DNA of 43,871 nucleotides from a virus (Duplodnaviria > Heunggongvirae > Uroviricota > Caudoviricetes), in the IMG/VR virus record IMGVR_UViG_2537561979_000006; one strand, 5' to 3'. Below the pieces are notes generated by a model, which was not told the DNA's origin, searched no databases, and saw only the letters and a program-made list of their open reading frames with translations. A program made the position numbers and the translations under genes. The first letter of the stretch is position 1. Each line of letters starts with the position of its first letter. Of the stretch, positions 6,426 to 32,913 are shown piece by piece.

Positions 6426-6605
6426 ATGAAAAACGCATTGCAGTTTTTGTTTGTTGCGTTCTGGTTGTTCGCATCATGTATGCCCATCATCTTCACAGCA
6501 AGGTATATGGAAAAAGTTGATGTTTTGATATTAATATTTGGATATATAAATGCCCTTTTTTTAGGGGTGTTCATGGCGGTCATGTGCATTGAATACTGGC
6601 GGTAA
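6426..6605 (+). CDS. Small hydrophobic two-TM protein (59 aa)
   Basis: Strong RBS (TAGGAGGAATA) before the ATG at 6426; two hydrophobic stretches; AT-rich; function unknown. Confidence 0.45.
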   Translation: MKNALQFLFVAFWLFASCMPIIFTARYMEKVDVLILIFGYINALFLGVFMAVMCIEYWR

Positions 6606-6859
6606 ATACAGCGAACTCCATTGGTTTAGTTGGATATTTACTGTGCTGGACAAAAACGGTTTGCGGGGAAATCTTAGTTAAGTAGAATGACTGCGGGTGC
6701 TTGAGGCTATCTGCCTCGGGCATGGACACCAACGGCAGATAGAGAAAAGCCCCAGTTAACATTACGCGTCCTGCAAGACGCTTAACATTAATCTGAGGCC
6801 AATTTCATGCTAGACACATGTAGGTTAGCCTCTTACGTGCCGAAAGGCACGGAGAAGCA

Positions 6860-8300
6860 GGCTATTGTTAACACCAAGCTGTAATGTCCCCTTTGAACCA
6901 TTCTAAAATGTCCCCAGACAATTCTCTGGGGGATTTTTCATGATCAAAGAGACTGTTACGATGAGTCATAAGGAACTCCACCGACTTCAGATTATTCAGG
7001 AACAAGCTGCGGCACGCATTGGCATTTCTATTCGGCAGGTTAAACGTCTGGTGCAACGGTATAGAAATGAAGGGCCTTCTGGTCTGGTTTCCCACCGACG
7101 TGGAAAGCGTCCTAATAATTCCTTTTCTACTGAATTCAGAGCAACAGTAATTTCACTCCTCAAAGGCCGTTACGCTGATTTTGGACCTACGTTTGCGTGC
7201 GAAAAATTGCGCGAGATACACGGTTTATCTTTATCCGTTGAAACTCTCAGAAAGTGGATGATAGAAGAGGGGTTATGGCGTGAACGCCGTCGTAAAATTG
7301 CCCGTATATATCAACGCCGCATGCGACGACCATCTTACGGTGAACTGATCCAGATTGATGGCTCACCTCATGACTGGTTTGAAAATCGAGGCCCCAGATG
7401 TACACTGATCGTTTTCATTGATGATGCCACCAGTGCGTTGATGGCGTTGCGTTTTGTGCCTGCTGAAACAACCCGGGCTTACATGGAAACCCTCCGGGGT
7501 TACCTTAATGATCATGGCGTACCGCTCGCTCTCTACTCTGATAGACACAGTATATTCAGGGTAAATAACCCAGAGCGGGAAGGTGAGCTGACCCAGTTCA
7601 CTCGTGCGATAAAGACACTGGGCATCGAGCCAATCCATGCCAACAGCCCGCAGGCAAAAGGGCGGGTAGAGCGCGCCAATCAGACACTACAGGACAGGCT
7701 GGTCAAAGAAATGCGGCTTCAGAATATCAGTGATATTGAAACAGCAAATGCATGGTTGCCGACCTTTATTGAAGCCTATAACAACCGGTTCGCTACGTCG
7801 CCTCGTACTACTGATAATGCTCATCTTGATGTGCACCATTCTGAAGAGGAACTGGGTTATATCTTCAGCCTACAGGCGAAGCGCGTTCTGTCTAAAAATC
7901 TCACTTTCCAGTACAAAAGCAGTGCGTTTCAGGTACGCAGTGAGGGCCGGGGATATCGACTTAGGCATTCGGTTGTTACTGTATGCGAGAACTTTGACGG
8001 TGAAATTAACGTTCTGTATGACGGGAAAGCGCTGGGCTGGGAAAAGTATGTTGATGGCCCGGAGCCTATACCACTGGATGATGAAAAGAGTGTCCATGAA
8101 CGAGTGGATAATGCCCGTATTGATTTACGCTCAAAATACTATGTTAAACCTAAAGCTGACCATCCCTGGCTTACGCGCCGAACGCAAAGTCATCAGCAAG
8201 TTAAGCCCCCGAAGTTACCTAAAAAGAAGCCTGATCCCGATAAAAAAGATTGAAACCAAGATCGATTCGGTTGAGTGCATATCCATTCATAGGGTAGATT
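6860..8300 (+). mobile_element. Insertion sequence carrying the DDE transposase; boundaries approximate
   Basis: Single transposase gene interrupting the Qin-like region between the dicC side and flxA; terminal inverted repeats could not be resolved by eye. Confidence 0.4.
6940..8253 (+). CDS. DDE transposase (rve/integrase-core type; ISNCY/IS1202-group-like or IS481-like)
   Basis: 437-aa ORF with N-terminal HTH (IGISIRQVKRLVQRYRNEGPSGL), DDE-like residues in IQIDGSPHDW / LYSDRHSIF / ERANQTLQDRL, and a basic C-terminal tail. Family assignment is tentative. Confidence 0.75.
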   Translation: MIKETVTMSHKELHRLQIIQEQAAARIGISIRQVKRLVQRYRNEGPSGLVSHRRGKRPNNSFSTEFRATVISLLKGRYADFGPTFACEKLREIHGLSLSVETLRKWMIEEGLWRERRRKIARIYQRRMRRPSYGELIQIDGSPHDWFENRGPRCTLIVFIDDATSALMALRFVPAETTRAYMETLRGYLNDHGVPLALYSDRHSIFRVNNPEREGELTQFTRAIKTLGIEPIHANSPQAKGRVERANQTLQDRLVKEMRLQNISDIETANAWLPTFIEAYNNRFATSPRTTDNAHLDVHHSEEELGYIFSLQAKRVLSKNLTFQYKSSAFQVRSEGRGYRLRHSVVTVCENFDGEINVLYDGKALGWEKYVDGPEPIPLDDEKSVHERVDNARIDLRSKYYVKPKADHPWLTRRTQSHQQVKPPKLPKKKPDPDKKD

Positions 8301-8689
8301 CTTAAGTCGCGTTTCTGGTGTTCATTTTCGGGTGGTTTGTTACTTGTTTTACCGGGGATATGCCAGAAACGCGCTGAGTCAGTCTGGGCGGTGCGCGTAA
8401 TGAGGCGTTATGGTAAATAGCCTATGCTAATGTCCGCTAAGAGCAAGAAGCGGAAGTTGGCAGTTTTGTGGACTGTCCCCACAAAAGTGACTACAGAAAT
8501 AGTTGCAATTCATAATTGATCATGGGTTGTCAGTTAAACTCGTGGCGATTTAAATAGACTAATTGGGAGTGCGTCCATTACTTATATCTTGTAATGTTAA
8601 CTATCAGAAATGATACAAAGATAATATGTCTTTAAAGAAAAGGCTGATGGCGAAAAGTGGCCCGATGAGGGCCACAATACGGCTGTCAC

Positions 8690-9022
8690 TTAGACGTAAA
8701 TATCAATGGTGCCAGCGGTATTTGTATCGTCTTTTTTCTCTTCTTTTTTATCAGGCTGAACTGTCGCGTCTTCATTCTTTTTCTCTGCCTGCTGCCTTAA
8801 CAACTGCTCCAGTTGAGCCCAGAGGCTTTCAATTTGCTTCTGTACCAATGCAGCCATTTCTTTTTTCTGCTGTGTCGTCATCCCCTCTTCCGATGAGATT
8901 TTCCCAAGCTTTTCAGTCAGCACCTGAATTTGTCTTGTGATTTTGGCTATTTCTGATGTTCCTTCCGGGGCGGAGTTGTTTGAAATAACGGTTGAGGTAT
9001 TTCCCTGAATTGTGACAGACAT
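8690..9022 (-). CDS. flxA: FlxA-like protein
   Basis: 110-aa coiled-coil, lysine/glutamate-rich protein in the position flxA occupies next to ydfV/relB in Qin; preceded by a sigma-28-type promoter. Confidence 0.65.
   Translation of the reverse strand: MSVTIQGNTSTVISNNSAPEGTSEIAKITRQIQVLTEKLGKISSEEGMTTQQKKEMAALVQKQIESLWAQLEQLLRQQAEKKNEDATVQPDKKEEKKDDTNTAGTIDIYV

Positions 9023-13183: not shown

Positions 13184-13187
<4 letters not shown>
12876..13187 (+). CDS. YdfR-like hypothetical protein
   Basis: 103-aa ORF between holin and endolysin, the position ydfR occupies in Qin. Confidence 0.5.
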
Positions 13188-14211
<1,024 letters not shown>

Positions 14212-14786: not shown

Positions 14787-14990
14787 GGTAGACAATATTA
14801 CAAACCATATTCACTTTAGATGCCCGTGTTGTCATGGTTCCCAGTATAGAACATCATCTTTTGATGTTTCTGACATGAATCCTTTCGGGGCAAAATGTAT
14901 CTTTTGTAAATCAATGATGATTACATTTGATAATATTTCACAATACTTAAATGCCAGCCGTCTGTCGTTGGATTTAAAAAAGTGAAAATG

Positions 14991-15015
14991 AAGGCTCCTT
15001 CGGGAGCCTTTTTAA
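14991..15015 (+). terminator. Rho-independent terminator at the Qin-like/P2-like junction
   Basis: GGCTCC-ttcg-GGAGCC followed by TTTTT. Confidence 0.6.
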
Positions 15016-15092
15016 TGTCTGGCGTAACTGGAAAGCCGCGCCAGACAAGACTTCACGTTTTACTACTAGCAGTCAAAAGCCATAAAAAGCGG

Positions 15093-16136
15093 CTAGGGTG
15101 TGGACACATTGTGGACACTCTGACCACCATTGGCACCCTTCAACGGGTTAAGCGAAATCGCGTCCTGCAGGTACTGAGGAGCGAAGTGCGCATAGACCAT
15201 TGTCTGCGCAATTTTCGTATGACCTAAGATCCTCTGCAGTGTGATGATGTTGCCCCCGTTAATCATAAAGTGCGTCGCGAAAGAGTGTCGTAGCGCATGT
15301 GTTGCTTGTCCGGCCGGTAAATCGGGCTTAACCTCTTTGAGGGTTCGCCTGAAGTCAGCATAACTGGCCTCAGGAAACAGAAAACCTCGTGTTTTGCCGA
15401 CTACGTAAGCCGCAACGTCATCAGAGATCGGGACCGTGCGCGGTGTGTTGGTTTTCGTCTTAACGAAAGACACCCGGTTATGAATCACATTCTCCGCCTT
15501 CAATCGCGCAGCTTCTCCCCATCTTGCTCCGGTACTCAAACACAAAACCGCAATTTTACGATTATCACCTGAGAGCGCAGCAAGTAAGGCGTCAATTTCC
15601 TCAAGAGTGAGATAGCCCGTTTCGGCTGTCTGCTCTTTCAGTTTTTTGAATCCCCTGAATGGATGCTCACCGTTATACAGTTCTGACTCAATCAGGGTTG
15701 TGAACATCCCACCTAGCGTGATCAGGTCGCGGTTGATGGTAGTTGGCTTAATACCTTCACCCCGACGTTGAGCACAATATTGCGTTATCAGGCTCTTGGT
15801 GATCTGGAAAGCGCAAGGGTTTCCGGTCATCGTTTCGAAACGCTCAATTTTCCTGAGATACGATTGACCGTGCTCCTCATGTTTACCTTTCAGCTTCCAC
15901 CATAACTCTTTCAGTTCCGACAATTGGCGTTTGTCCGTTGGTTTTGAAAGCCATTCCTTTGAGTGATGGTTATATTGAGTATGCTTTTCAAAAGCCATCG
16001 CCTCGCTTTTCTTGTCGAACTTCCGACGGATGCGTTTTCCGTTACGCCCAGCCGGTCTAATGTCCACTTCATATCGACCATCATCGAGCTTTTTAACAGA
16101 CATAAAGCCTCCCGATGATGTTACTGCGTACTTCAA
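15093..16136 (-). CDS. int: P2-type tyrosine integrase
   Basis: Close match to P2 Int (KKLDDGRYEVDIRP...GARWGEAARLKAEN...HALRHSFATHFM...LGHT...VYAHF); the true start is probably the internal Met at 16103. Confidence 0.9.
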   Translation of the reverse strand: MKYAVTSSGGFMSVKKLDDGRYEVDIRPAGRNGKRIRRKFDKKSEAMAFEKHTQYNHHSKEWLSKPTDKRQLSELKELWWKLKGKHEEHGQSYLRKIERFETMTGNPCAFQITKSLITQYCAQRRGEGIKPTTINRDLITLGGMFTTLIESELYNGEHPFRGFKKLKEQTAETGYLTLEEIDALLAALSGDNRKIAVLCLSTGARWGEAARLKAENVIHNRVSFVKTKTNTPRTVPISDDVAAYVVGKTRGFLFPEASYADFRRTLKEVKPDLPAGQATHALRHSFATHFMINGGNIITLQRILGHTKIAQTMVYAHFAPQYLQDAISLNPLKGANGGQSVHNVSTP

Positions 16137-16199
16137 TTTCCTGATTTAGATAGCAAAAACTCACTGTGCATTTATTGCACAAAAAAGCGCCGTAAATGG

Positions 16200-16499
16200 T
16201 TAGCCAGTTTTCTGGTCTGAGTGGGGTGACGTTGTTGTCTGCTGCCCAAAGTGCGCGAGAGCCGGTGCAATCTGCCCAGCTTCAGGTGCTATTTGGTCAG
16301 TCATAAACCATAAGGTGTACTTGGTGAAACGAGGATGTTGAAGGATTCTCATTATGGGCTCGACACCCGGTTTTTTATCCCCAGCTTCGTATCCACAAAA
16401 TGAACCATATGCTATTCCAGTTAACTCACTGATTTCCTTTCTATTTAATCGTTCTGACTCCCTGATGAGTTTGATTTTTTCATTGATCGGGGTTGACAT
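16200..16499 (-). CDS. C: P2 C-type immunity repressor
   Basis: 99 aa; ...FTKYTLWFMTDQIAPEAGQIAPALAHFGQQTTTSPHSDQKTG matches the P2 repressor C-terminus as I recall it. Confidence 0.85.
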   Translation of the reverse strand: MSTPINEKIKLIRESERLNRKEISELTGIAYGSFCGYEAGDKKPGVEPIMRILQHPRFTKYTLWFMTDQIAPEAGQIAPALAHFGQQTTTSPHSDQKTG

Positions 16500-16619
16500 A
16501 AATCCTCCATACGATGATTATTCCCTTATAAGGAAATAAATTCCTTTTTAGGGGTTTTGGCTATAGGCAATTAAAGCCCTTTATGAGCAATTAAATGCAC
16601 TAAAGGAGAATCGTAACAG

Positions 16620-16898
16620 ATGAACAACCAGCTTGTAAGTAGCACGGATGCGGTCCCGTATCAGGAGTTTGCCCGTCTTATTGGTAAAACACCCGCAGCC
16701 GTTAAAGGCATGATTGAGAAGGGCAAGCTGCCTGTAGTCGAGATGACTGATCCGCAGTCAACGAGTGGGCGCGCAGGGGAATATTGGGTCTACCTGCCAG
16801 CATGGAACAAAGGAATGAAGATGGCTTATGACAGCCGTCCTAAAGAGATTCGCGATGGTTGGCTGATGTGGCTCGGCTTAGGGCAACCTTCACGGTAA
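16620..16898 (+). CDS. cox: P2 Cox-like excisionase/transcription regulator
   Basis: 92-aa ORF divergent from C, in the P2 immunity arrangement. Confidence 0.75.
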   Translation: MNNQLVSSTDAVPYQEFARLIGKTPAAVKGMIEKGKLPVVEMTDPQSTSGRAGEYWVYLPAWNKGMKMAYDSRPKEIRDGWLMWLGLGQPSR

Positions 16899-16939
16899 TT
16901 AGATTCACCTATTTCATTCAAATTCAATCGAGAAATTGC

Positions 16940-17179
16940 ATGTCAAAACCAATAAAACATGGCTGCATTCGTCATATCACTAATGGTATGCGGGTGCTGA
17001 TCGACTTAAAAAGCGTGGCCGCTATCCGTGAGCGCACTGAAACAGCCGATAAAGTTGAGGTGCATCTTACGTCGGGAGAAGTTTTTGAACTTGATGTTGC
17101 CTATGAGGAGATTGCAGGTCTGTATCTAGAATTTTTAGCAAAAGAACGTGGGGTTATGGCAAACCCCACCAGTATTTGA
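16940..17179 (+). CDS. P2 orf78-like early protein
   Basis: 79-aa ORF after cox (MSKPIKHGCIRHITNGMRVL...). Confidence 0.5.
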   Translation: MSKPIKHGCIRHITNGMRVLIDLKSVAAIRERTETADKVEVHLTSGEVFELDVAYEEIAGLYLEFLAKERGVMANPTSI

Positions 17180-17181
17180 GC

Positions 17182-17370
17182 TTAGTTGATATCTAAAAAG
17201 CTTTTATGCGTGACAGGCATTTTAGATTGAACTGCCTCTCTCAACTGGATTGACAGTTTGTTGATTTCCTCAGCCTTCTCACGATTAGAGATCGCATCAG
17301 AGGAAGAATTAACCAATGCAATGGCTGATTTTAGAGTGGCAATTAATTCATCATTTTGTTGATTAGTCAT
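17182..17370 (-). CDS. Small AT-rich coiled-coil ORF antisense to the early operon
   Basis: About 62 aa from the ATG at 17370 with a GAGG RBS; AT-rich relative to flanking P2 genes. Confidence 0.35.
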   Translation of the reverse strand: MTNQQNDELIATLKSAIALVNSSSDAISNREKAEEINKLSIQLREAVQSKMPVTHKSFLDIN

Positions 17371-17628
17371 GAAATACCTCATGTGATTGGCTTGTTTTTG
17401 GCGATTCGATCCTATCACAAGGCCATGTGTCGGGCATGGTTAAAACCCGACTCCCTAAGGAGTATTTATGAAAGAGCCTCGCTGTATTGCACAGTTGCTT
17501 CGAAGAGAAAGCCCTAATCCGATCAACTTCACCATCACTCACGGTCGCGGCCGCAAGGGCATAATCATCCGAACCCGTAAGCCGGGCGTTATCGAGAAGG
17601 TTCGCCGTCTGGTCAAAAAGAGAGGACT

Positions 17629-18135
17629 GTGGTTATGACGGTAATGACACTGGACGTGATCCAGAAACAACCAACAGCTCTTCGCGGTCTGGTCTGCAAG
17701 TATCTGGCTCAGCCTCGCTGGCAGGACACTTGTGATTTTTACAATCAGATGATGGAGCGGGAGCGTCTTACGGTTTGTTTCCACGCTCAATTAAAACAGC
17801 GTCACTCTGTGATGCGCTTAGAGGAAATGGCTGAAGCCGATCGTGAGCGTCTTGTTTGTGCGCTTGATGAATTGAGAAATGCATTCACCCGGTATCGTCA
17901 ACTTGGCGCGTCAAAAGCAACTTTCATCAGCCGCCTGACCGTCAGCCAAAGGCGTTCATTGTTTCTTCATGCTGGACTGACAGAGCAGGAATTTATGATG
18001 CCGCACTGGCGTTTGAATGAAGAGGACTGTTACTGGCGTGACAAACTTTTCCGCGCTCTGCGAGAGCTGTTCAGCCTTTTTGAGTACGCACCAACTATTT
18101 TAACCTCGGTAAAACCTGAGCAGTATTTACATTAA
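17629..18135 (+). CDS. B: P2 replication protein B-like
   Basis: ...RWQDTCDFYNQMMERERLTVCFHAQLKQRH...WRDKLFRALRELFSLFEYAPTILTSVKPEQYLH. Confidence 0.85.
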   Translation: MVMTVMTLDVIQKQPTALRGLVCKYLAQPRWQDTCDFYNQMMERERLTVCFHAQLKQRHSVMRLEEMAEADRERLVCALDELRNAFTRYRQLGASKATFISRLTVSQRRSLFLHAGLTEQEFMMPHWRLNEEDCYWRDKLFRALRELFSLFEYAPTILTSVKPEQYLH

Positions 18136-18183
18136 TTAATCTGGATTCGACTAATTACGCGCCTTACAGCGTGGGGACTCCTT

Positions 18184-18420
18184 TTGTCCGGAGATAGGCA
18201 AATGCAAAAACAAAATACAGCGCAGCGGGGGATGTACTCGGCACATCTGGCGCAGGCAGTAAGCGAGGCACAGCGCGACTTGGCGACCCGTTTCTCTTCT
18301 CAGTTTGATGGGCTTATCGCGTACATCAGTAAGTCAGAACTTAATCGCACCGAGATTATCGAGTTTTTAGGCCAGGAGTCGGAAAAGTTACACAACTCAA
18401 TTTTCGGTAGAGCTGGTTAA
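18184..18420 (+). CDS. P2 orf80-like protein
   Basis: Small ORF in the conserved position after B; the start may be the ATG at 18202. Confidence 0.5.
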   Translation: MSGDRQMQKQNTAQRGMYSAHLAQAVSEAQRDLATRFSSQFDGLIAYISKSELNRTEIIEFLGQESEKLHNSIFGRAG

Positions 18421-18442
18421 CCACTGTTAACAGGAAGCAAAA

Positions 18443-18706
18443 ATGAGCATACACATCGAGATTAATAACCAATACGTCATCACCAGTGACCGCTATCAAT
18501 TCATTTTGCAGGAAAAAAAGACCGCAACATCCGGGAAGAATGAAGGTAAGGAATGGTTGGACGTTGTGGGTTACTACCCAACTATCCCTAAGCTTATCTC
18601 AGGCTTGGTTTTGCATGATCTTTTAACCAGCGATCTTACCGGCTTCGCAGCTTTGGAAGCTCGGATTGAACGCATGGGTAAGCAATGTCTGGACGCTTTT
18701 AAATAA
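18443..18706 (+). CDS. P2 orf81-like protein
   Basis: 87-aa ORF immediately preceding gene A. Confidence 0.5.
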   Translation: MSIHIEINNQYVITSDRYQFILQEKKTATSGKNEGKEWLDVVGYYPTIPKLISGLVLHDLLTSDLTGFAALEARIERMGKQCLDAFK

Positions 18707-18707
18707 T

Positions 18708-20702
18708 ATGTCCAACGAACCTCGGGGGCGTGTTGCCCCCTCGCCACCACCACCATTTTTGAAGGGCACCAGTGATTCATTCGTTGGTGCTTATCCCTGG
18801 AATAATGTCTACAAAGAGGCTATAGGCCGCGACAGACCCCTTACACGTGGCGAATACCGTCAGGTGCAAGGTGTTTTAGGTAAAGTTAATCGCCTGCCAT
18901 ATGTCTTAAAAACATTGTTTAACTCGCGGTATGACTTCATCCGTCGTACAAAAAGTCCACTTCATGGTTTCTATTTCCTCAAGAACACCGTTGAGCAAAG
19001 GGTGGGGCCGCGTCTTGAGCGGGTTAATCAGTTAAATGGAATGAACGAGACTGCATCGCTTCTCTTTCTGAGCGAGCGCGAAAGCTATTCACGATTAGCG
19101 GGTATGAGTGACAAAGCGCTCAAAAAATTTGCTGCTCGTATTGCTTCGCAGCTCTATGTTGCTTATGAGGAACTTAGCGACGCATGGGCAGATGCTCATG
19201 GCGGTAAAGAAACCCTTTTCACCGATGAAGCGCAGGCGCACTTATATGGTCACGTTGCCGGTGCAGCTCGTGCATTCAACATCACCCCAATGTTCTGGAA
19301 GAAATACCGCAAAGGGCAAATCATGATCCGCCAGGCATTTTCCGCTATCGCTCGTCTGATTAACGATGAATGGTGGATTAACCAGTTTAAGGCGCAGCGT
19401 ATGCGCTGGCACGAGGCTTTGCTGATTGCCGCCGGTGAGGTGAATAAAGACCGCTCCCCATACGCCAGCAAAACGGCGATCCGTGATGTACATTCTCGCC
19501 GTAAAGCTAATTTCGAATACTTGAAGTCGTGTGACTTGGAAAACAAAGTCACTGGTGAGCGCATCGATCTCATCAGCAAAGTCATGGGAAGTATTTCAAA
19601 CCCCGAAATCCGTCGTATGGAACTGATGAATACTATCGCAGGGATTGAACGCTATGCGGCCGGTCAGGGTGACGTCGGGATGTTTATCACTATCACCACG
19701 CCGTCGAAGTATCACCCGACACGTCAGGTTGGAAAGGGCGACAAAAAGACGGTGCAGCTTAACCACGGATGGAATGAAACCGCCTTTACGCCCAAGGATG
19801 GACAGCGGTATTTGTGCCGTATCTGGAGCCTGATGCGTACAGCATTTAAAGATAACGGTCTGCAGGTCTACGGGATGCGTGTTGTTGAGCCGCATCATGA
19901 CGGGACTCCGCACTGGCATATGATGCTTTTTTGTAAACCAGAGCAACGCAAACAGGTCACCGAAATCATGCGCCGTTATGCCTTAAAAGAAGATGGCGAT
20001 GAAAAAGGCGCTGCAGCACAGCGCTTTGAAGCTAAGCACCTCAATCAAGGTGGCGCAGCCGGTTACATTGCAAAATACATCGCGAAGAATATCGATGGTT
20101 ACGCGCTCGATGGTCAGGTCGATCACGACACCGGCAAACCTCTAACCGATACCGCAGCAGCTGTAACCGCATGGGCGTCAACATGGCGTATCCCGCAATT
20201 CAAATCAATTGGCCTGCCGACGATGGGCGCGTACCGCGAACTGCGCAAACTGCCTCGCGGGGTAAGTATTGCTGATGAATTTGATGAGCGTGTCGAGGCG
20301 GCCAGAGCTGCAGCTGATGAAGGTGAATTTGACCGGTATATCGCAGCGCAGGGTGGGGCGAATGTTCCACGCGATAGCCAGACCGTCCGTGTGGCTCGTA
20401 ACGTGACTGATGAGGTCAACGCCTACGAAGAGGATATAGAGAGAGTTGTGGGCATCTACGCCCCGCACTTGGGCTCTGAGTTGGTACGTGTTACCCGGAC
20501 AGCCGAATGGCGCATTGTTCCAAAACTTTTGGCCGTTGAGCCTTTGACTTTAAAAAGCGGCATTGCCGCGCCTCGGAGTCCTGTCAATAACTGTGGGTTG
20601 GTTAAATCTTTCTCTGGCTCTAGTCAACTTTCCATATGTGCGGTTGAGAACGCTCAAGTGAAAGTGAGGCAGTTAATTCATCCCTTAAGAAGCTATGTAT
20701 AG
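18708..20702 (+). CDS. A: P2 gpA-like rolling-circle replication initiator (HUH endonuclease)
   Basis: HUH motif (PHWHMMLF) and Tyr motif (YIAKYIAKNIDGY); about 664 aa against ~761 for P2 A; the C-terminal ~35 residues look unrelated and AT-rich. Confidence 0.85.
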   Translation: MSNEPRGRVAPSPPPPFLKGTSDSFVGAYPWNNVYKEAIGRDRPLTRGEYRQVQGVLGKVNRLPYVLKTLFNSRYDFIRRTKSPLHGFYFLKNTVEQRVGPRLERVNQLNGMNETASLLFLSERESYSRLAGMSDKALKKFAARIASQLYVAYEELSDAWADAHGGKETLFTDEAQAHLYGHVAGAARAFNITPMFWKKYRKGQIMIRQAFSAIARLINDEWWINQFKAQRMRWHEALLIAAGEVNKDRSPYASKTAIRDVHSRRKANFEYLKSCDLENKVTGERIDLISKVMGSISNPEIRRMELMNTIAGIERYAAGQGDVGMFITITTPSKYHPTRQVGKGDKKTVQLNHGWNETAFTPKDGQRYLCRIWSLMRTAFKDNGLQVYGMRVVEPHHDGTPHWHMMLFCKPEQRKQVTEIMRRYALKEDGDEKGAAAQRFEAKHLNQGGAAGYIAKYIAKNIDGYALDGQVDHDTGKPLTDTAAAVTAWASTWRIPQFKSIGLPTMGAYRELRKLPRGVSIADEFDERVEAARAAADEGEFDRYIAAQGGANVPRDSQTVRVARNVTDEVNAYEEDIERVVGIYAPHLGSELVRVTRTAEWRIVPKLLAVEPLTLKSGIAAPRSPVNNCGLVKSFSGSSQLSICAVENAQVKVRQLIHPLRSYV

Positions 20703-20833
20703 GATATTGATTGGTTAAAGCTATCAAAGATAATGAAGCGGGATTTCAAAATCATAAATATTGTGTATTTAACTAGATGATTACCATTTAAAAGATTATC
20801 ATTTCAGCAGTAATAGTCTTAACGGAGCTGAGT

Positions 20834-21763
20834 ATGAGTGTTGCAAGACATCATCATTTTTTATCTCAATGTTATTTGAAAGGCTTTACAAGCAACGGGG
20901 GGAAAAAATCAAAATTAACTGTAATAGATTTAAAGGAGCGCAAAACTTTTGAAAGTAATACACGTAATGTCGGGGGTGTGAGAGATTTTAACCGATTAGA
21001 ATTGGATGGAGTTGATCCAAACTATCTCGAAAGTTCTCTTGCAGAGTTCGAAGGCAGTGTCGCCACTCATCTAAGGAAACTTGAGGAGGGCAAAGATTTT
21101 TCAGGCGAAACAAAAGATATCATTTTAGAGTTTATTTCCTTACTTGCGATACGCACGCCTGCTCAGCGAGAGCATTTATCATCGCCATTGAAACAAATAG
21201 CAAAGTTCATAATGAAATCTTCTGTTAGTTCGGCTGAGCGTTGGGAAGATTGCAAATTAGCTTATGAGAAAGAAAAGGGAGAGTCTTTGCCATATGATCT
21301 CGCTTACGAGAAAATTAAAGATTATGTTGATGGTGATAATTTCGAAATCAATGTAATCAGAGAGTTCATGATAGGCATGGAAATGCAATGTGTACCTGTA
21401 ATTGCTGAGCTGTTGCACCAACGCGACTGGTCACTTATGACCATATCTGATGGGCAAGGAACATTTATAACTTCAGATAACCCAGTTTGCTTAATGTGGA
21501 CTAATCCTGAATTATCACAAGGTCCTTATTCCCCGGGGTTTGGTCTAAAAGACACTTTAGTTTTGTTTCCAGTATCAAAAAATCTTCTTTTGGCAGGCGA
21601 GTTTGATGGTCATGAGGGGGTATTTAGTTGTAATGACGAGCAGGTTGCCATCTTTAACACTTCAGTCATCCGGCATACCGCAGAAAGAATTTTTTCAGCC
21701 AATGGAAATTTCCATTTTTTAGACGCAGCTAAAAGAATGAAGCAAGGTAAAAGCCTAGTTTGA
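20834..21763 (+). CDS. DUF4238-like protein; candidate anti-phage defence cargo
   Basis: 309 aa, AT-rich; N-terminal HHHFLSQCYLKGF and central FITSDNPV motifs resemble the DUF4238 signatures as I remember them; sits in the P2 A-to-cos (tin/old) cargo slot. Confidence 0.7.
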   Translation: MSVARHHHFLSQCYLKGFTSNGGKKSKLTVIDLKERKTFESNTRNVGGVRDFNRLELDGVDPNYLESSLAEFEGSVATHLRKLEEGKDFSGETKDIILEFISLLAIRTPAQREHLSSPLKQIAKFIMKSSVSSAERWEDCKLAYEKEKGESLPYDLAYEKIKDYVDGDNFEINVIREFMIGMEMQCVPVIAELLHQRDWSLMTISDGQGTFITSDNPVCLMWTNPELSQGPYSPGFGLKDTLVLFPVSKNLLLAGEFDGHEGVFSCNDEQVAIFNTSVIRHTAERIFSANGNFHFLDAAKRMKQGKSLV

Positions 21764-21978
21764 TAGTGGTTTTTTATGGGTTTCCGGGAAGAATTCTACT
21801 CTTAACCAGTGTTCGTAAAATGATTACCTGTTATAAGAGTTTTTCATTTTTAGGTGCGCCTAATAATGCATTTAATTGCATGTGGTTTTATAGGGGACGA
21901 TTCGCCTGCTCTATCCAGCGCTGGTGTGATTTCAATGCTAACGTGCATGTGCATCAAAATAGCCCCATTAAGCGGGCA

Positions 21979-21997
21979 GGCGAGGCGGGGATAGCAC
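21979..21997. other. P2-type cos site (19-nt cohesive-end sequence)
   Basis: GGCGAGGCGGGGATAGCAC, one mismatch from the P2 cohesive end GGCGAGGCGGGGAAAGCAC as I recall it; located just beyond the 3' end of Q as in P2. Confidence 0.6.
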
Positions 21998-22162
21998 TGC
22001 GCGCCGGGTGTGGTGACAGGATTTATTTTACGCGTCTGTGCGCGTCGTGGGGGCGCGCTGTGATGTGAAGTCGGTCAAGGTGATGTCGGGCGTTTGCGTC
22101 GCGTGCGCGGCGTCTGGCTTGCTCTGAGAATGTGCCGCCCGTAGGCGGCATTTTTGGCAGGT

Positions 22163-23188
22163 TTAGTCGGTCTCTATGTTGTAATCCTTAAAGCGGATCA
22201 CCTCCATCCCGAGCCAGTCGTTTATCTCTTTAAACCGCTCCTGCAGCGGCGTCAGCTCGTTACGCACAAACACCCGCGCCACCTTCTCGATATCGCCCAT
22301 CGAGCCGATATTTTCAGGCTTGCCGCCCATGAGCTGGAACGGCACGCGGTGCGCATCAAGCAGGTCGGCGGCGCTCACCTTCTTGATGTTAAAAAAATCA
22401 TCCTTCGTGGCGACTTCACTCAACGGCACGATCTTAATGCCGTCCGGTTTCCCGTTCGGGGCGTAGAAAAACAGGTTTTTAAAATTCCCGAGTCCTTTCG
22501 AGTCGCGCATCGCGGAGCGCAGCGCCTCGACGTCGGTGCTGCTTTGCGCCGCGTCGGTCACGTACATGATGTAACCCGCGTGCGCGCCGTTCTGGTAATA
22601 CTTGCGACGAAACAGCGTGGCGGATTCATTCAGCCAGGCGGAATTGAGCGCGCTCAGGTATTCCGGCATCCCGTAGAGCTCCTGATTGATATCAGGCTCA
22701 AGCAGATGAAACACCGAATCGGGGGCGAACTGGTGCGGGTGCGTATAGTCCGACACGTACCAGTAAACGCCAGCTTCGACACCACGGCGGGTGTATTTGG
22801 CCGGGGAGGTTTCCAGTTTAAAAAGCTGGCCGGTCACGCTCATGCGCTTCTCGAGATAGCCGTTGGCGAAGACCAGATAATCGAGCACAAGGCGGCTGAA
22901 GTCCTGACGAGACAGCAACGGGTGCGGGATAAAGGTGCTGGTCAGAATGTTGCGCTTAACGTAAATCGGGGAGCTGTGGTGCACGGCGGCGCGCAGGCTT
23001 TTTGCCAGTCCCGAGAAATTGACCGGCGGCTCGTACCATTTGCCGTTATTGATGCACTCGACATAGTCGAGGATGTCGCGGCGATCCAAAACGGGTGACG
23101 GCTCACCAAAGGTGAACGCCTCCATTTTCTGCGACGCGCTGGCGGCCATGTTGGCCTGTTTTGGCTGTTTCTTTTGGCGTTTTTTCAT
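22163..23188 (-). CDS. Q: P2 gpQ-like portal protein
   Basis: 341 aa, length and order as in P2 (Q then P, divergent from O). Confidence 0.85.
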   Translation of the reverse strand: MKKRQKKQPKQANMAASASQKMEAFTFGEPSPVLDRRDILDYVECINNGKWYEPPVNFSGLAKSLRAAVHHSSPIYVKRNILTSTFIPHPLLSRQDFSRLVLDYLVFANGYLEKRMSVTGQLFKLETSPAKYTRRGVEAGVYWYVSDYTHPHQFAPDSVFHLLEPDINQELYGMPEYLSALNSAWLNESATLFRRKYYQNGAHAGYIMYVTDAAQSSTDVEALRSAMRDSKGLGNFKNLFFYAPNGKPDGIKIVPLSEVATKDDFFNIKKVSAADLLDAHRVPFQLMGGKPENIGSMGDIEKVARVFVRNELTPLQERFKEINDWLGMEVIRFKDYNIETD

Positions 23189-23189
23189 C

Positions 23190-24959
23190 TTAGTTAATAT
23201 CCAGAATTGAACTTGATTGCATACCGCTTCCAGCGGAAAGCGGCTCGTTTAACAGGGCGTGCATGGTCGCCCACGCGATATCCGCGTGGCTGGCTTCCTC
23301 GCTGCGGCTGGCTTCATAGGTCGCGCTGCGGCCGCTGTTGGTCATGGTTTTGCGGATGGCCATAAATGACTGAGTGATGTCGGTCGCACCGGCGTCATAT
23401 TCCAGACATCCGCGCCTGATGGTGTCTTTCGCTTTCAGCACCATTGCGGTTTTCATTTCCGGCGTGTAGCGGATAGCGCGCGCCGCCGGGAAGAATGAGC
23501 GCACGAGCTGGTAAACACCCTGGCCGATGCCGGTCGCATCGATGCCGATATAGTCGACGGTGTATTTCTCGGTAAGCGCCCGGATGGCCTCGGCCTGTGC
23601 GGCAAAGTCCATGCCTTTCCACTGGTGACGCTCAAGGATGCGGAACTTGCCACCGGCAACCAGCGGCGGAGCCAGTACCGCACAGCCTGCGCTGTCACCG
23701 GTGTGTGACGGGTCGTAGCCAATCCAGACTGGGCGCCAGTTAAACGGACGGTCGGCGAACGGCTCGAAGTCCTCCCATTCTTCCATCGCATCGACCATGC
23801 AGCGCTGCAACTCCTCGAACGGGAATACCGACGCCTTGTCGTCGACGAACTCGCACATAAACAGGTTACGGAAGTCATCCGCGCTGTTTTCCTGCTTAAG
23901 CTGATCGAGGTTAAACAGGGTGCAGCCACCGGCGAGCGCATCCTCAATGGTGACAATCTGCCGCCACTGGCCGTCACCGCACAGCACGCCACCGGTAAGC
24001 GCCTGATGACTGATATCGATGTCGACACGTTCGTCGCGGTTGCTGCGGCCCCGGTTAAACAGCTCGCCTGACCAGAACGGGTAAGCGCCATGCGCCAGCG
24101 TCGATGGGGTCGAGAAATAGGTGGTGCGCAGGTGTGACTGCGAGGCCATGCCCGAGGCGACTTTGCGCAGCTTCTGAAAATTGGGGATCCAGAAAATTTC
24201 ATCGACATACAGGTCGCCGTTGTGGCTCTGCGCGGTGTTGGAATTGGTCCCGAGAAAAATCAGCTCAGCGCCATTGTTGCCGATGACGATCGGGTCGCCT
24301 GACAGGTCGACGTCAACCAGACGGGCAAAGGCGATGATGTACTTACGGAACACGTAAGCCTGCGTCTTACTGGCAGATAAAAATATCTGGTTTTGCCCGG
24401 TCTTAAGCGCGCGCAGGAGTGACTCGCGCGCAAAGTAGAACGTCGCGCCAATCTGGCGGGATTTCAGGATGTGGCGGATGCGGTGCTCTAACCCTGCTTT
24501 ATGCCAGCGGAGCTGATACCCAAACGACTGGTCGAAGAAAATCTCTTCCAGCTTTTCAATCGCTTCATCACTGAAGAAATTGCGTTTCGGCTTTTTGCGA
24601 TCCCCTTTGTTACGGCTGGCGATATTGGGGTTTAAATCCACCTCGTTTCCGGTCTGGCCGTAGCGGTTAATGCGCGCAAGCCGCTCCATCTGGCGCGACA
24701 AAAAGTCCGCGACTTTGAAGTCATACGCGGTCAGGTCTGGCTTAGCGTAGAGCTGGATAAGCCGCGCCTCTAATGTCGATTCCACGCGGTTAATCGGCGC
24801 GGTTTCTCCCCATCCATCCCGCTGTTTCCAGCTCTGCACGGTCGGGCGCTTGAGCTGCAGCATGTCGCAGATTTGCGGCACGGCGAACCCCTGCCAGTAC
24901 AACAGCCGCGCGCGCCGTCGCGGGTCATTTAACAGAGAAAGGTCAGTTGAAATGGTCAT
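23190..24959 (-). CDS. P: P2 gpP-like terminase large (ATPase) subunit
   Basis: About 589 aa from MTISTDLSLL...; P2 gene order. Confidence 0.85.
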   Translation of the reverse strand: MTISTDLSLLNDPRRRARLLYWQGFAVPQICDMLQLKRPTVQSWKQRDGWGETAPINRVESTLEARLIQLYAKPDLTAYDFKVADFLSRQMERLARINRYGQTGNEVDLNPNIASRNKGDRKKPKRNFFSDEAIEKLEEIFFDQSFGYQLRWHKAGLEHRIRHILKSRQIGATFYFARESLLRALKTGQNQIFLSASKTQAYVFRKYIIAFARLVDVDLSGDPIVIGNNGAELIFLGTNSNTAQSHNGDLYVDEIFWIPNFQKLRKVASGMASQSHLRTTYFSTPSTLAHGAYPFWSGELFNRGRSNRDERVDIDISHQALTGGVLCGDGQWRQIVTIEDALAGGCTLFNLDQLKQENSADDFRNLFMCEFVDDKASVFPFEELQRCMVDAMEEWEDFEPFADRPFNWRPVWIGYDPSHTGDSAGCAVLAPPLVAGGKFRILERHQWKGMDFAAQAEAIRALTEKYTVDYIGIDATGIGQGVYQLVRSFFPAARAIRYTPEMKTAMVLKAKDTIRRGCLEYDAGATDITQSFMAIRKTMTNSGRSATYEASRSEEASHADIAWATMHALLNEPLSAGSGMQSSSILDIN

Positions 24960-25125
24960 GCTTGCCTCGTTTTTGGTGTGACGTGGCAAGGCTAAGGAAA
25001 TAGGGGATTATTCGCGCTAAGTGCCTGTTGTGTCAGATCTAATCAGATCGTAAGCGGTGGCTGATGCGGGTCAGAGTCGGGAAACTAACCCCGACCCGAA
25101 AACCCAACATCAGGACACCTGAAAA

Positions 25126-25980
25126 ATGGCAAAGAAAGTTTCTAAATGGTTTCGCATCGGCGTCGAGGGTGACACCTGCGATGGCCGCGTCATCAGCGGC
25201 GATGATATTCAGGATATGGCCGACACGTTCGACCCGCGCGTCTACGGCTGCCGCATTAACCTCGAACATATCCGGGGGCTGATGCCTGACAGCCAGTTTA
25301 AACGTTATGGCGATGTGACCGAGCTTAAGGCGGAGATTATCAGCGATGGCTCTGCGCTCGATGGCAAAAAAGCGCTGTTTGGAAAAATCGCCCCGCTCGA
25401 CGAGCTGGTCAGCATGGTGAAGGCCGGACAGAAGGTTTACACCTCCATGGAGATCCGCCCGAACTTTGCCAACAGCGGCAAATGTTACCTCGTTGGCCTT
25501 GCCGTCACCGATGACCCGGCAAGTCTCGGCACCGAATACCTCGAATTCTGCAGCCGCGCTGCGCAGAACCCGCTCGCCGGTAAAAAAGACCAGCCGGACG
25601 ATGTTTTCTCTGTGGCCTCACTGGCTGTGCTGGAATTTGAAGACGTCCCCGACACCATGCTCAACAGTCTGACCGATAAGGTTAAGGCCATTTTCAGCCG
25701 CAAGCAGGCCAGCGATGACGCGCGTCTCGCCGATGTGCATGAGGCCGTGACCACCGTCACGGAACTGGTGCAGACCAACCTCACAGCCACCGACCAGCGC
25801 GTCACCGAGCTGGAGACCGAACTGGCGCAGCTTAAGCAGGACGTGACCAGCAAGGCCGAAGAAAGCGCGCAGGCGTTTAACGACCTCAAAAGCTCCCTCA
25901 ATAACACCGAAAGCCAGCGCCAGCCGCGCCGTGAGCTTTCAAAAGGCGGTACGGGCGACGAGCTGCTGACCAATTGCTGA
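25126..25980 (+). CDS. O: P2 gpO-like capsid scaffold protein
   Basis: 284 aa, same length as P2 O; acidic coiled-coil C-terminus. Confidence 0.85.
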   Translation: MAKKVSKWFRIGVEGDTCDGRVISGDDIQDMADTFDPRVYGCRINLEHIRGLMPDSQFKRYGDVTELKAEIISDGSALDGKKALFGKIAPLDELVSMVKAGQKVYTSMEIRPNFANSGKCYLVGLAVTDDPASLGTEYLEFCSRAAQNPLAGKKDQPDDVFSVASLAVLEFEDVPDTMLNSLTDKVKAIFSRKQASDDARLADVHEAVTTVTELVQTNLTATDQRVTELETELAQLKQDVTSKAEESAQAFNDLKSSLNNTESQRQPRRELSKGGTGDELLTNC

Positions 25981-26035
25981 TAACGCGCCGGGTGTGCTGC
26001 CCGGCCTGACCCCTTTTACCCGAACAGGAAAAACC

Positions 26036-27103
26036 ATGCGTAAAGATACCCGCTTCAAATTTAATGCCTACCTGTCCCGCGTCGCGGAGCTGAACGGTAT
26101 TTCCACCGATGACGTAGCGAAGAAATTCACCGTCGAGCCGTCGGTCACGCAAACCCTGATGACTACCCTGCAGATGTCATCCGCGTTTCTGACCAAAATC
26201 AACATCGTGCCGGTCGACGAGCTGAAAGGCGAAAAAGTCGGGGTGGGCGTTAACGGTACGATTGCGAGTACCGCCGACACCGCCGGTGATGATGAGCGTA
26301 AGACCGCTGACTTTACCGCGCTGGAGGCCAATAAATACGAGTGCGACCAGATTAACTTTGACTTCCATATCCGCTACAAACAGCTCGACCTGTGGGCGCG
26401 ATTCCAGGACTTCCAGACCCGTATCCGTGACGCCATCATCAAACGTCAGTCCCTCGATTTCATCATGGCCGGTTTCAACGGCATCGAGCGCGCGGCGACG
26501 TCCGACCGCAAAAAGAATCCGATGCTGCAGGACGTGGCGACAGGCTGGCTGCAGAAGTACCGCAGTGAAGCGCCAGCGCGCGTTATGTCAAAAATCACCG
26601 ACGAAGAAGGTGCGGTGATTTCTGAAGTGATCCGCGTGGGTAAAAACGGCGACTATGCGAACCTCGATGCGCTGGTCATGGATGCCACCGGCAACCTGAT
26701 TGACGAGATTTACCAGGATGACCCGGAGCTGGTTGTCATCACCGGGCGTAAGCTGATGGCGGATAAATATTTCCCGATCGTCAACAAAGAGCAGGCAAAC
26801 ACCGAGTCGCTGGCCGCTGACATCATCATCAGCCAGAAGCGAATCGGCAACCTGCCAGCCGTGCGCGTGCCTTACTTCCCGGCAGATGCGCTGATGGTGA
26901 CGCGTCTCGACAACCTGTCTGTCTACTTCATGGATGACGCGCACCGTCGCAGCATCATCGAAAACCCGAAGAAAGACCGCATCGAAAACTACGAGTCAAT
27001 GAATGTTGACTATGTGGTCGAGGCTTACGCCGCCGGTTGCCTGATTGAAAACATCAAGCTCGGTGACTTCACCGCACCTGCAGCAACGGAAAGCGGAGAG
27101 TAA
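26036..27103 (+). CDS. N: P2 gpN-like major capsid protein
   Basis: About 355 aa from MRKDTRFKFNAYL...; order O-N-M. Confidence 0.85.
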   Translation: MRKDTRFKFNAYLSRVAELNGISTDDVAKKFTVEPSVTQTLMTTLQMSSAFLTKINIVPVDELKGEKVGVGVNGTIASTADTAGDDERKTADFTALEANKYECDQINFDFHIRYKQLDLWARFQDFQTRIRDAIIKRQSLDFIMAGFNGIERAATSDRKKNPMLQDVATGWLQKYRSEAPARVMSKITDEEGAVISEVIRVGKNGDYANLDALVMDATGNLIDEIYQDDPELVVITGRKLMADKYFPIVNKEQANTESLAADIIISQKRIGNLPAVRVPYFPADALMVTRLDNLSVYFMDDAHRRSIIENPKKDRIENYESMNVDYVVEAYAAGCLIENIKLGDFTAPAATESGE

Positions 27104-27106
27104 GCC

Positions 27107-27862
27107 ATGACGAGTCCCGCAGCGCGTCACATGATGCGGGTCTCGGCCTCTGAAACAGCGCAGCGGGCTGCCGTCCCGCTGCGCAATGCAACTGCCTATG
27201 AGCAGATGCTCGTTAAGCTGGCCGCAGACAACCGCACGCTGAAACAAATCAGCTCCAAAGAGCGCAAAGCCGCGAAAAAGCGCGAGCTGCTGCCGTTCTA
27301 CCTGCCGTGGGTCGCTGGCGTCCTAGCAAACGGCAAAGGCGTACAGGATGACATTGTCATGACGGTGATGCTCTGGCGTCTTGATGCTGACGATATCGCT
27401 GGGGCGCTGGAAATCGCCCGTTACGCCATGACCTACGGCCTCACCATGCCGGTCGGTCGCCGTCCGACGCCGTGCCTGCTGGCCGAAGAAGTGGCACTGG
27501 CCGCGCAGCGCCTGCTCACGGCAAAACAGCCGGTCAATCTGGCGAACCTGCTCGACACTATCGCGCTGACTGAACGCGCGGATATGCCCGATATCGTGCG
27601 TGCGAAGCTGCACAAAATCACCGGCTACGTGCTGCGTGATGCGGAGCAACTGCCCGAGGCGCTGGCGCACCTGCAGCGTGCGATCCAGTTAGAAAGCACT
27701 ATCGGTGTGAAAAAGGATATCGAGCAGTTAGAGCGTCAGCTCAGGCCAAAACCCGAACCGGCACCGAAAACCAAAACGACTAAACCGCGCACGCGCAAGC
27801 CTGCCGCCAAACCGGCGGCACGACGCGGGCGTCCACCAAAGGCGGCAAAAGTCGCAGGTTAA
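27107..27862 (+). CDS. M: P2 gpM-like terminase small/endonuclease subunit
   Basis: 251 aa with a basic, lysine/proline-rich C-terminal tail. Confidence 0.8.
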   Translation: MTSPAARHMMRVSASETAQRAAVPLRNATAYEQMLVKLAADNRTLKQISSKERKAAKKRELLPFYLPWVAGVLANGKGVQDDIVMTVMLWRLDADDIAGALEIARYAMTYGLTMPVGRRPTPCLLAEEVALAAQRLLTAKQPVNLANLLDTIALTERADMPDIVRAKLHKITGYVLRDAEQLPEALAHLQRAIQLESTIGVKKDIEQLERQLRPKPEPAPKTKTTKPRTRKPAAKPAARRGRPPKAAKVAG

Positions 27863-30814: not shown

Positions 30815-31098
30815 ATAAGATTTAAGTGTGTTATGTGTTGTATTTATTGCCAGTAAGTCATAAATGTTCTATCTTCACTATCTAATTGTCTTGGGTGTTT
30901 TTATATTATTTGATTGTGATGGGGTAATGTCCTCATTACACCTTTTTCGATAACATGTTCGGGAGTCTAGGCGTTTGCCGTATTAGAACGATTTTTTTAA
31001 ATTAGCATATCAGATTTATTGTGATAGATATGTTTTTGTTGTATTTTTAACACCCTCAGATTTTTCTTTCCCTTTTTTAAATTTTAACATGTTGTGCT

Positions 31099-32913
31099 TT
31101 GATGAATGGAGTTAGAATGAAGATAATAAATGCTTTATTTTCGACAGTAACGGTTGACCTAAAAAGAAAAACTTTTTATTTGGATTTGTTATTTCTGTTT
31201 GTTTGTGTATGGACGCTAATAGCCTCAGGTTCGGAGGCTCAATATTATCTCTTTAAGTTTATTAATAGTGATAGTTCAACACTCTACGGTAGTGTATTTG
31301 AAGATGCGATTGCGCGTATACCAACCTTTAATGAGTATGTTAAAGGTGCTTATTCATTTTCCGGCAGTTATGGTTTTTTAGCTGCTCTGATTATAGTTGT
31401 TGTGGCTTTATTTTATCAGACTACTGTTCAAATATTTATAGTTAGTATTATTAGTTCGGCGTTTGGGCTAACAGTAACGGATTTCTTGATGTTTGCTTTT
31501 AATGGAACTCTAACGACACAAGCAATGATAGAGTGTGTTATGGCAAACGCTTTGGGGTCACCTATAATTGCAAGCTTTATTGTTTTGCTTTTTTATATAA
31601 AAAAGTTTTTATTTAATGTGTCAAGCATTAATCTGGCTCTCAGGTATATATCAAATTATGTTGTTTACTCAATAATTTGTTTTTTGATTTTGTTTGTTAC
31701 TTACTATATCGTGTGTTTCTTTTATAGACCTACAGCAGTAAATTTTTCAGTCTCTACGTCTGAAGAGTTTTCTGGTGATTACTTCCTAAGTGATAAGAAT
31801 GATGTCTTAAAAGAAGCTAAGGGTTCTTTGTTAAAAGATCGATTTTCGCTATTAAACTCACCAGTAAAGTTAAATGGAACAATAAATGTTTTTGGTGAGA
31901 TCGATTCTATACTCTCAAAATTTAATGCGAGCGATGTCTATACTGTAAGAGTCTTGCCTTTATTAAACTGTATTGATGGGGGGGCAATTAATGCAGCGCT
32001 TGCTGACTATTTAAGTTATGAAGGCGTAAGGGGGTTTTCTATTAAATCTTCAGAATCAATGACTTTGATTACCTTTGGTGATAAGGCGGGATATGTTAAA
32101 AGTAATGATGAGCTCGTTAATATGTTTACTGTCAAAAAAAATAATAAATCGGGGTTTGATATTACTAAAGTTAATGATGGAGTGTTTAGTTATTATCCTT
32201 CTGAATCGAGTGGGAGCATGTATGTCGCTACTGGAGTGACTGATTTTAAAGGTGACCAGAGTAAGAAGGAAGTGAAGTACACGTTGGATGTAAATGGTGT
32301 GAAAAAAATATTCCATGTGGATGTGAGTAGGCTGCGCGCGAAAAATGCAGAAAGAAAATTACAGTGTCAAATTGCTTCATTCACAAGTTCATCCAACGAT
32401 GTATACATTGATGCAGGAGAGGCTGTATATGTTGGCGTACTTATCAAACCTATTCTTAATCAAAAGAATGAATATTTTTCACTTTTTAGCGAACGTGATA
32501 ATAAATTCGACGTCAAAGGGAAATTGCTATATGTACAGGCAAAAAATGTTTCGCGAGAAAACGTAGTAGGGCATTATGTTACAAAGGGATATTTGAACGG
32601 CTTTATTCTTCATTCCTTTGATAAGTTATCAATAGATGGGAAGAATGTTGAATCAAATAAAATGGATAATCTAATGGTGATGGGGGAGGGGATTTATGGG
32701 CATGTATCTGCGGACAATAATTTAGTTATTAGTGGTAAAGCCGATCTCTTCTATAAAAATAGATTGCGGCAAAACAAAACCTTATGGGAAACTTCGAGTG
32801 ATAATACATTAATCTTGGGTGGTATTGGAGCTTTAATGGTTTCCTTGTTGTTGTGGTGTGTAAATAGAATATATTCCTCTTTGAAGAAAAATGAAGTTAT
32901 TAATAGTTTTTAA
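31099..32913 (+). CDS. Polytopic membrane protein of unknown family encoded by an AT-rich moron
   Basis: 598-604 aa (probable start at the ATG at 31117, which has a GGAG RBS); about five N-terminal TM helices, a ~350-aa hydrophilic domain and a C-terminal TM anchor; strongly AT-rich; terminator-like hairpin 13 nt downstream. Confidence 0.75.
   Translation: MMNGVRMKIINALFSTVTVDLKRKTFYLDLLFLFVCVWTLIASGSEAQYYLFKFINSDSSTLYGSVFEDAIARIPTFNEYVKGAYSFSGSYGFLAALIIVVVALFYQTTVQIFIVSIISSAFGLTVTDFLMFAFNGTLTTQAMIECVMANALGSPIIASFIVLLFYIKKFLFNVSSINLALRYISNYVVYSIICFLILFVTYYIVCFFYRPTAVNFSVSTSEEFSGDYFLSDKNDVLKEAKGSLLKDRFSLLNSPVKLNGTINVFGEIDSILSKFNASDVYTVRVLPLLNCIDGGAINAALADYLSYEGVRGFSIKSSESMTLITFGDKAGYVKSNDELVNMFTVKKNNKSGFDITKVNDGVFSYYPSESSGSMYVATGVTDFKGDQSKKEVKYTLDVNGVKKIFHVDVSRLRAKNAERKLQCQIASFTSSSNDVYIDAGEAVYVGVLIKPILNQKNEYFSLFSERDNKFDVKGKLLYVQAKNVSRENVVGHYVTKGYLNGFILHSFDKLSIDGKNVESNKMDNLMVMGEGIYGHVSADNNLVISGKADLFYKNRLRQNKTLWETSSDNTLILGGIGALMVSLLLWCVNRIYSSLKKNEVINSF

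Follow-up and report, generated by a model that had tools for sequence, protein, structure and literature searches.

The P2-like prophage contained in the IMG/VR virus record IMGVR_UViG_2537561979_000006 shows a single AT-rich gene between its replication gene A and its cos site, and the question is what this gene does and whether it is new. The whole stretch analysed, 43,871 nucleotides, is called here the window. The gene encodes a 309-aa protein of the DUF4238 family, and a first-pass annotation, made from the letters alone, had presented it as a candidate for an uncharacterised single-protein defence or exclusion function. The sequence of the gene equals that of pFR101, the experimentally tested founding member of the DUF4238 single-gene systems, which blocks phage T7, and this identity is practically certain. 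The hotspot and its borders show the following features.

18708..20702, + strand, P2-type replication gene A, 664 aa (Pfam Phage_GPA, E 6.7e-114; phrog_91, 'nicking at origin of replication')
20598..20702, + strand, private 34-codon tail of gene A and its stop codon, left recombination scar of the hotspot
20634..22182, + strand, stretch equivalent to pFR101, the experimentally tested fragment of 1.55 kb (primer sites and 399-nucleotide identity)
20703..20833, + strand, AT-rich leader of the DUF4238 gene, with a promoter-like TTGATT-16-GATAAT at 20707..20734 and a GGAG ribosome-binding site
20710..21885, + strand, mobile cassette, approximate extent (about 88% DNA identity with the allele of phage pro483 and 14 complete E. 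coli genomes)
20834..21763, + strand, DUF4238 anti-phage gene (PADLOC DUF4238-Pers), 309 aa, ATG start, Pfam and PADLOC matches
21979..21997, + strand, cos cohesive-end 19-mer GGCGAGGCGGGGATAGCAC, one mismatch to P2 cosR
22163..23188, - strand, portal gene Q, right border of the hotspot (Pfam Phage_portal; 78% identical to the pro483 portal)
23190..24989, - strand, terminase gene P

Identity of the gene with the pFR101 system

The pFR101 system is listed as 'DUF4238' in Table S2A of Rousset et al. 2022 (Cell Host Microbe, PMC9122126), as a one-gene system of the P2 hotspot taken from the P2-like prophage of E. coli TA007. The protein given in this table and the window translation are identical in 309 of 309 residues (100%). 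The primer tails of pFR101 map onto the window, the forward one at 20634 and the reverse one at 22163..22182, and the insert DNA printed in the table (first 399 nucleotides) shows no difference from the window beginning at 20634. The position between gpA and cos/Q is also shared, and no difference between the two was detected; the window gene belongs to the prophage lineage that yielded pFR101 and is itself the type example of this single-gene defence system. In E. coli K-12, pFR101 DUF4238 alone gives strong resistance to T7 and not to the other seven of the eight phages tested, and the molecular function of the protein is stated as unknown (PMC9122126).

Positions 14834..27763 of the window are equal to a public E. 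coli contig over 12,930 nucleotides without mismatch. The exact DUF4238 protein is recorded on 93 contigs, and all 24 of those that were read show the same neighbourhood: int, C, cox, B, A, DUF4238, Q and P. In DefenseFinder the gene is named Rst_DUF4238. Because the protein is identical to the pFR101 product and a dedicated PADLOC model exists, the novelty of the gene is refuted: the literature has described gene, locus and anti-T7 phenotype since 2022, and the standard catalogues of defence systems contain the gene. The first-pass annotation had found no defence family to name, which DUF4238-Pers and pFR101 correct, and its word 'uncharacterised' holds for the molecular mechanism only. Its proposal of a single-protein defence function is borne out: the identical pFR101 insert confers resistance to T7, and no partner gene recurs in 16 contexts. 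A reading of the sequence alone thus rightly picked a validated defence gene, which is a useful positive control. The gene remains a well-defined small single-protein system, to which the present analysis adds that no solved structural relative was found, that H7, H8, E66, E73, R112, R197, D215 and N275 are targets for mutation, and that there is no partner gene. The placement of relatives in other defence islands and prophages, and the replacement of the gene A 3' end by the cassette, are also new.

Signals and product of the DUF4238 gene

Most of what the first-pass annotation had taken from the letters around this gene agrees with the searches. The coordinates of the open reading frame (ORF) are exact, and the gene and its own upstream region are AT-rich, with a guanine-plus-cytosine (GC) content of 0.32-0.41 over about 20550..21900 versus 0.55-0.59 in gene A and Q/P. 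The ribosome-binding site, GGAG at 20824..20827, is 6 nucleotides upstream of the ATG, the N-terminal motif HHHFLSQCYLKGF begins at residue 6 and FITSDNPV at residue 211. The Pfam family, which the annotation had named without a search, was recovered as a full-length match to PF14022, with 136.7 bits (E 1.4e-39; the cut-off, or gathering score, is 27 bits) and residues 7-290 on profile positions 2-279 of 281. The profile checks that the annotation had suggested also include PADLOC, where PDLC03000 (DUF4238-Pers, 309 positions) matches residues 1-309 of 309 with 718.2 bits. DUF4238 is the sole match of the protein in Pfam, without a TIR domain, and the NCBIfam search gave no relevant match. The protein is soluble and acidic, with a mass of 35 kDa and an isoelectric point (pI) of 5.7. 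No transmembrane or hydrophobic segment was seen in its 309 residues, and a membrane or secreted effector is ruled out by the lack of a hydrophobic segment.

The promoter-like site at 20707..20734 is, taken alone, weak evidence for a promoter: in the promoter and terminator scan, site counts were not above the shuffle expectation and gave it no independent support. The cloned fragment of pFR101, which starts at 20634 and includes the leader, was active. Cloning on a low-copy vector with the native promoter is stated for the P4-hotspot systems (PMC9122126), and we assume that it applies to the P2 set also.

Organization of the A-to-cos hotspot

Gene A starts with the ATG at 18708 (the mechanical ORF starts with the TTG at 18666), and a protein of 664 aa is called in identical public contigs. 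The window gpA aligns with those of P2 and pro483 through the residues SPVNNCG, and the register is lost at 20597/20598, after which it shows 34 residues versus 117 in P2 and 79 in pro483. This breakpoint matches the first-pass annotation, which had described a remodelled 3' end of gene A with a boundary at 20600. As read from these alignments, gene A lost its 3' end to the inserted cassette, and gpA can apparently do without its C-terminal region, which is overwritten by the turnover of the hotspot. On the left of the cassette the window and pro483 are unalignable, and on the right their similarity returns only in cos-proximal sequence. The cos 19-mer of the window is identical in pro483, and the cosR of P2 is annotated at NC_001895 33575..33593. 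With gpA on the left, cos and Q (followed by P) on the right and a foreign base composition between them, the locus is the P2 A-to-cos hotspot, as had been proposed.

The AT-rich cassette, of about 1.2 kb, is located where P2 has orf91, tin and old. The P2 genes old, tin and fun(Z) resemble the DUF4238 gene in being non-essential AT-rich lysogenic-conversion genes, each of which blocks a particular foreign phage, and old and tin also occupy the A-to-cos interval. They differ from it in showing no sequence relationship to DUF4238 and in their targets, which are lambda, T-even phages and T5 and not T7; in addition, Old is an AAA ATPase-type nuclease. By Pfam and tblastn, the window protein shows no homology to Old (ATPase/TOPRIM nuclease) or to Tin.

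A GC hairpin at 22134..22149 (GCCGCC-CGTA-GGCGGC), followed by ATTTTT up to 22155 on the + strand, is located just ahead of the Q stop codon. The structure at 22134..22155 could act as a terminator for + strand transcripts of the hotspot before they reach Q, and it is absent from the output of the consensus terminator scan. In the equivalent hairpin of P2 the T-run points in the Q direction, unlike that of the window.

Alleles and spread of the cassette

A second DUF4238 allele, of the same length and with 92% protein and 88% DNA identity, is found at the same locus in pro483 (NC_028943) and in 14 of 5,426 complete E. coli genomes. The pro483 allele shares with the window gene all family-conserved residues, and differs in being carried by another P2-like backbone (gpA 79% and Q 78% identical), with its longer gpA C-terminus after the breakpoint. 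Between the two alleles, the ratio of nonsynonymous to synonymous substitution (dN/dS) is 0.11 and none of the 25 replacements falls on a family-conserved position, which indicates that the gene is under strong purifying selection. In IMG/VR, ten viral contigs carry alleles at least 92% identical, all between gpA and Q, and they belong to at least two backbones, with gpA either 95-100% or about 79% identical to that of the window. Since the same cassette is found on divergent backbones, it moved between divergent P2-like phages. A tblastn search of 50,697 phage records, including P2, matched only pro483; P2 is without a DUF4238 relative.

The DUF4238 family and its predicted structure

An exhaustive HMMER scan of 1.84 billion cluster representatives gave 3,226 DUF4238 relatives at E <=0.001. 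The best 150 of these 3,226 are mostly proteins of about 300-340 aa, which match nearly the full query in a single stretch. Conservation was read from a set of 59 sequences, 29-51% identical to the query. Residues invariant or near-invariant in this set are H7, H8, Y14, L15, F18, D32, E66, E73, R107, P109, R112, E183, R197, W199, D215, P217 and N275, and the window protein has H7, H8, Y14, L15, F18, E66, E73, R112, R197, W199, D215, P217 and N275, each kept in 57 to 59 of the 59. The polar residues kept down to about 30% identity are H7, H8, E66, E73, R107, R112, E183, R197, D215 and N275. The HHH and SDNP motifs, which had been singled out for point mutation, are conserved in part: in HHH, H7 (57/59) and H8 (59/59) belong to the family and H6 (18/59) does not, and in SDNP, D215 (58/59) and P217 (59/59) are kept, S214 is kept partially (39/59) and N216 is not (10/59). 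When the 59 members were scanned singly against Pfam, only DUF4238 recurred and the remaining matches were singletons.

The AlphaFold2 model, built from a 49-sequence alignment, is of high confidence and compact, with a predicted local distance difference test (pLDDT) of 89.1 and a predicted template modelling score (pTM) of 0.85. It shows an N-terminal hairpin, a six-helix bundle and a C-terminal sheet. The first-pass annotation had suggested looking for a nuclease or NTPase fold; the comparison of the model with solved proteins found neither of these nor any other known enzyme fold. Two nuclease types were considered and rejected by their motifs. The window protein contains R107-x6-H114, in the form of the Rx4-6H of HEPN RNases, yet H114 is kept in just five of the 59 relatives, and the consensus shows no conserved (D/E)xK after D215, as would be present in a PD-(D/E)xK nuclease.

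Genomic context of DUF4238 relatives

Relatives in Salmonella, Vibrio and Pseudomonas are located in defence islands or prophages. The relative of Vibrio parahaemolyticus is in a lambdoid prophage, where it adjoins a KAP NTPase gene with HicAB near, and the one of Pseudomonas aeruginosa is about 5 kb from HamA-plus-helicase (Hachiman-like) genes. An IMG/VR contig contains a relative with 24% identity which adjoins a P2-type portal gene with 54% identity (coordinates 6001..6660 and 7038..7961), which points to a separate acquisition of the family at this hotspot by a distant P2-type phage. Among 16 distinct contexts no partner gene recurs, save the shared backbone of three related phages, and a two-gene system is ruled out by this result. 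By its neighbourhoods, the DUF4238 family behaves like a defence gene that stands alone and belongs to mobile elements and defence islands.

The Salmonella enterica relative (51% identical, gene at 8001..8918) shows an HNH/ScoMcrA-like gene, an integrase and insertion sequence (IS) remnants on one side. Its other side contains a NERD/AAA helicase and the type I restriction-modification genes hsdR, hsdS and hsdM, in the arrangement of a typical defence island.

Possible mode of action

As mode of action we tentatively propose a self-contained sensor-effector enzyme, switched on by a T7-specific cue and possibly abortive. The 35-kDa soluble protein would act alone in the cytoplasm, and the ten polar residues kept across the family would form a pocket for catalysis or ligand binding, whose most plausible substrate carries phosphate and is either nucleic acid or nucleotide. 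A cue specific to T7-type infection would license this activity, and phage multiplication would be stopped as a result, possibly at the expense of the infected cell. The invariant set comprises two His, three Glu, three Arg, one Asn and one or two Asp. It is shared by enterobacterial prophages and relatives as far away as marine bacteria, which argues for a catalytic or small-ligand pocket and not for a surface that binds one T7 protein. The invariant Arg residues suggest the phosphate-bearing substrate, and the fact that only T7 of eight phages is affected suggests the T7-specific cue.

Several points weigh against this proposal. The putative pocket is drawn from sequence conservation and not from a clustering of the residues in the model, and the acidic pI disfavours non-specific binding of nucleic acid. 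In the papers searched, no data on the mechanism of DUF4238, abortive infection, escape mutants or biochemistry were found. For an E. coli TIR system, a DUF4238 domain is described beside a TIR NADase effector (Nat Commun 2024, PMC11350192), and DUF4238 could accordingly serve as sensor and not as effector. This system is similar to that of the window in that the DUF4238 Pfam domain is part of a validated anti-phage system, and differs in its dependence on the TIR NADase active site, while the window protein has no TIR domain. A further step, in which DUF4238 would be an enzyme with a fold without solved relative, combining sensor and effector in one 35-kDa chain and stopping T7 by a biochemical route new among defence systems, is rather doubtful; if it were true, only the mechanism would be new and the gene itself still no new discovery.

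In an alternative without any enzymatic step or cell death, which we hold to be somewhat unlikely, DUF4238 would bind a T7-specific protein or structure and thereby block it, or would serve mainly as a sensor with sequestration or oligomerisation as its output. P2 Tin, which blocks T-even phages via their single-stranded DNA-binding protein, is a model for such direct interference. The limitation of the phenotype to T7 among eight phages, the lack of a recognised enzyme fold and the validated TIR system, in which the TIR NADase kills while a DUF4238 domain is present, are all in line with it. However, relatives from Vibrio, Pseudomonas, marine metagenomes and unrelated phages share the same invariant His, Glu, Arg, Asp and Asn residues, which is hard to fit with a T7-specific partner, because binding surfaces normally vary and catalytic cores stay fixed. 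PifA of the F plasmid, a single protein of a mobile element that specifically aborts T7 infection, resembles DUF4238 only as a one-protein exclusion function against T7; the two proteins are unrelated, and PifA is triggered by T7 gp1.2 and gp10.

The two remaining explanations have a low probability. It is improbable that the native role in the lysogen is other than anti-phage, such as prophage maintenance or host physiology, with T7 resistance as a side effect of plasmid expression in K-12. That one phage of eight is affected, that the assay was made on a plasmid and not in a lysogen, and that cargo unrelated to defence, including partitioning systems and a cytolethal distending toxin, occurs in the P2 hotspot too (PMC9122126), would agree with such a role; the neighbours of relatives in three unrelated genomes, which include restriction-modification, Hachiman-like, KAP NTPase and toxin-antitoxin genes, the low-copy vector with native promoter (as stated for the P4-hotspot systems) and the strong purifying selection are against it. 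Even more improbable, to a degree that makes it nearly negligible, is that the T7 phenotype is due to other DNA of the 1.55-kb insert, either the region of cos or a short ORF, for example 21760..22068. The insert does reach about 420 bp beyond the DUF4238 stop codon, including cos, and no point-mutant or frameshift control for the DUF4238 system was found in PMC9122126. However, cos-proximal DNA is also present in other P2-hotspot inserts of Table S2A, and further P2-hotspot systems were tested with no defence seen (PMC9122126). The ORF 21760..22068 has no PADLOC match, the region is not conserved with pro483 past about 21885, and DUF4238 is the sole conserved coding sequence in the insert.

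Other regions of the window

Between S and V, where P2 has the non-essential Orf30, the same prophage contains another AT-rich insertion, which spans about 30815..32913 and has a GC content of 0.28-0.36.

31117..32913, orphan membrane protein of 598 aa (about six hydrophobic helices in the N-terminal part, beta-rich domain in the middle, anchor at the C-terminus)

The 598-aa protein has no match in Pfam, PADLOC or PHROG; tblastn of 50,697 phage records and megablast of 5,426 complete E. coli genomes also gave nothing. It shows only 14 homologue clusters, all labelled hypothetical, and those with a named source are all from Enterobacterales; the homologue of Yersinia ruckeri is on an island and adjoins a MobA/MobL relaxase. 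This protein at the P2 orf30 locus looks less explained and more novel than the DUF4238 gene.

Further to the right, the prophage contains a tail-fibre and a tail-fibre-assembly gene, both of which precede an invertase gene. P2 holds fun(Z) at the invertase locus. A search for long inverted repeats on both sides of a tail-fibre segment gave no convincing pair inside the window, whose last position is 43871.

39479..41926, tail-fibre gene
42058..42633, tail-fibre-assembly gene
42731..43321, - strand, serine DNA invertase (Resolvase and HTH_7; phrog_125, 'DNA invertase')

The left part of the window, from 1 to about 15000, looks like another prophage or remnant, adjacent to the P2-like prophage. 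It has its own integrase, and the P2-like integrase lies to its right.

20..1315, - strand, integrase of the left neighbour
1659..3788, - strand, protein of 709 aa with a C-terminal Rv2179c-like 3'-5' exoribonuclease domain
6940..8253, transposase-like gene
13184..13717, lysozyme gene
13714..14211, Rz-like DUF2514 gene
15093..16136, - strand, P2-like integrase

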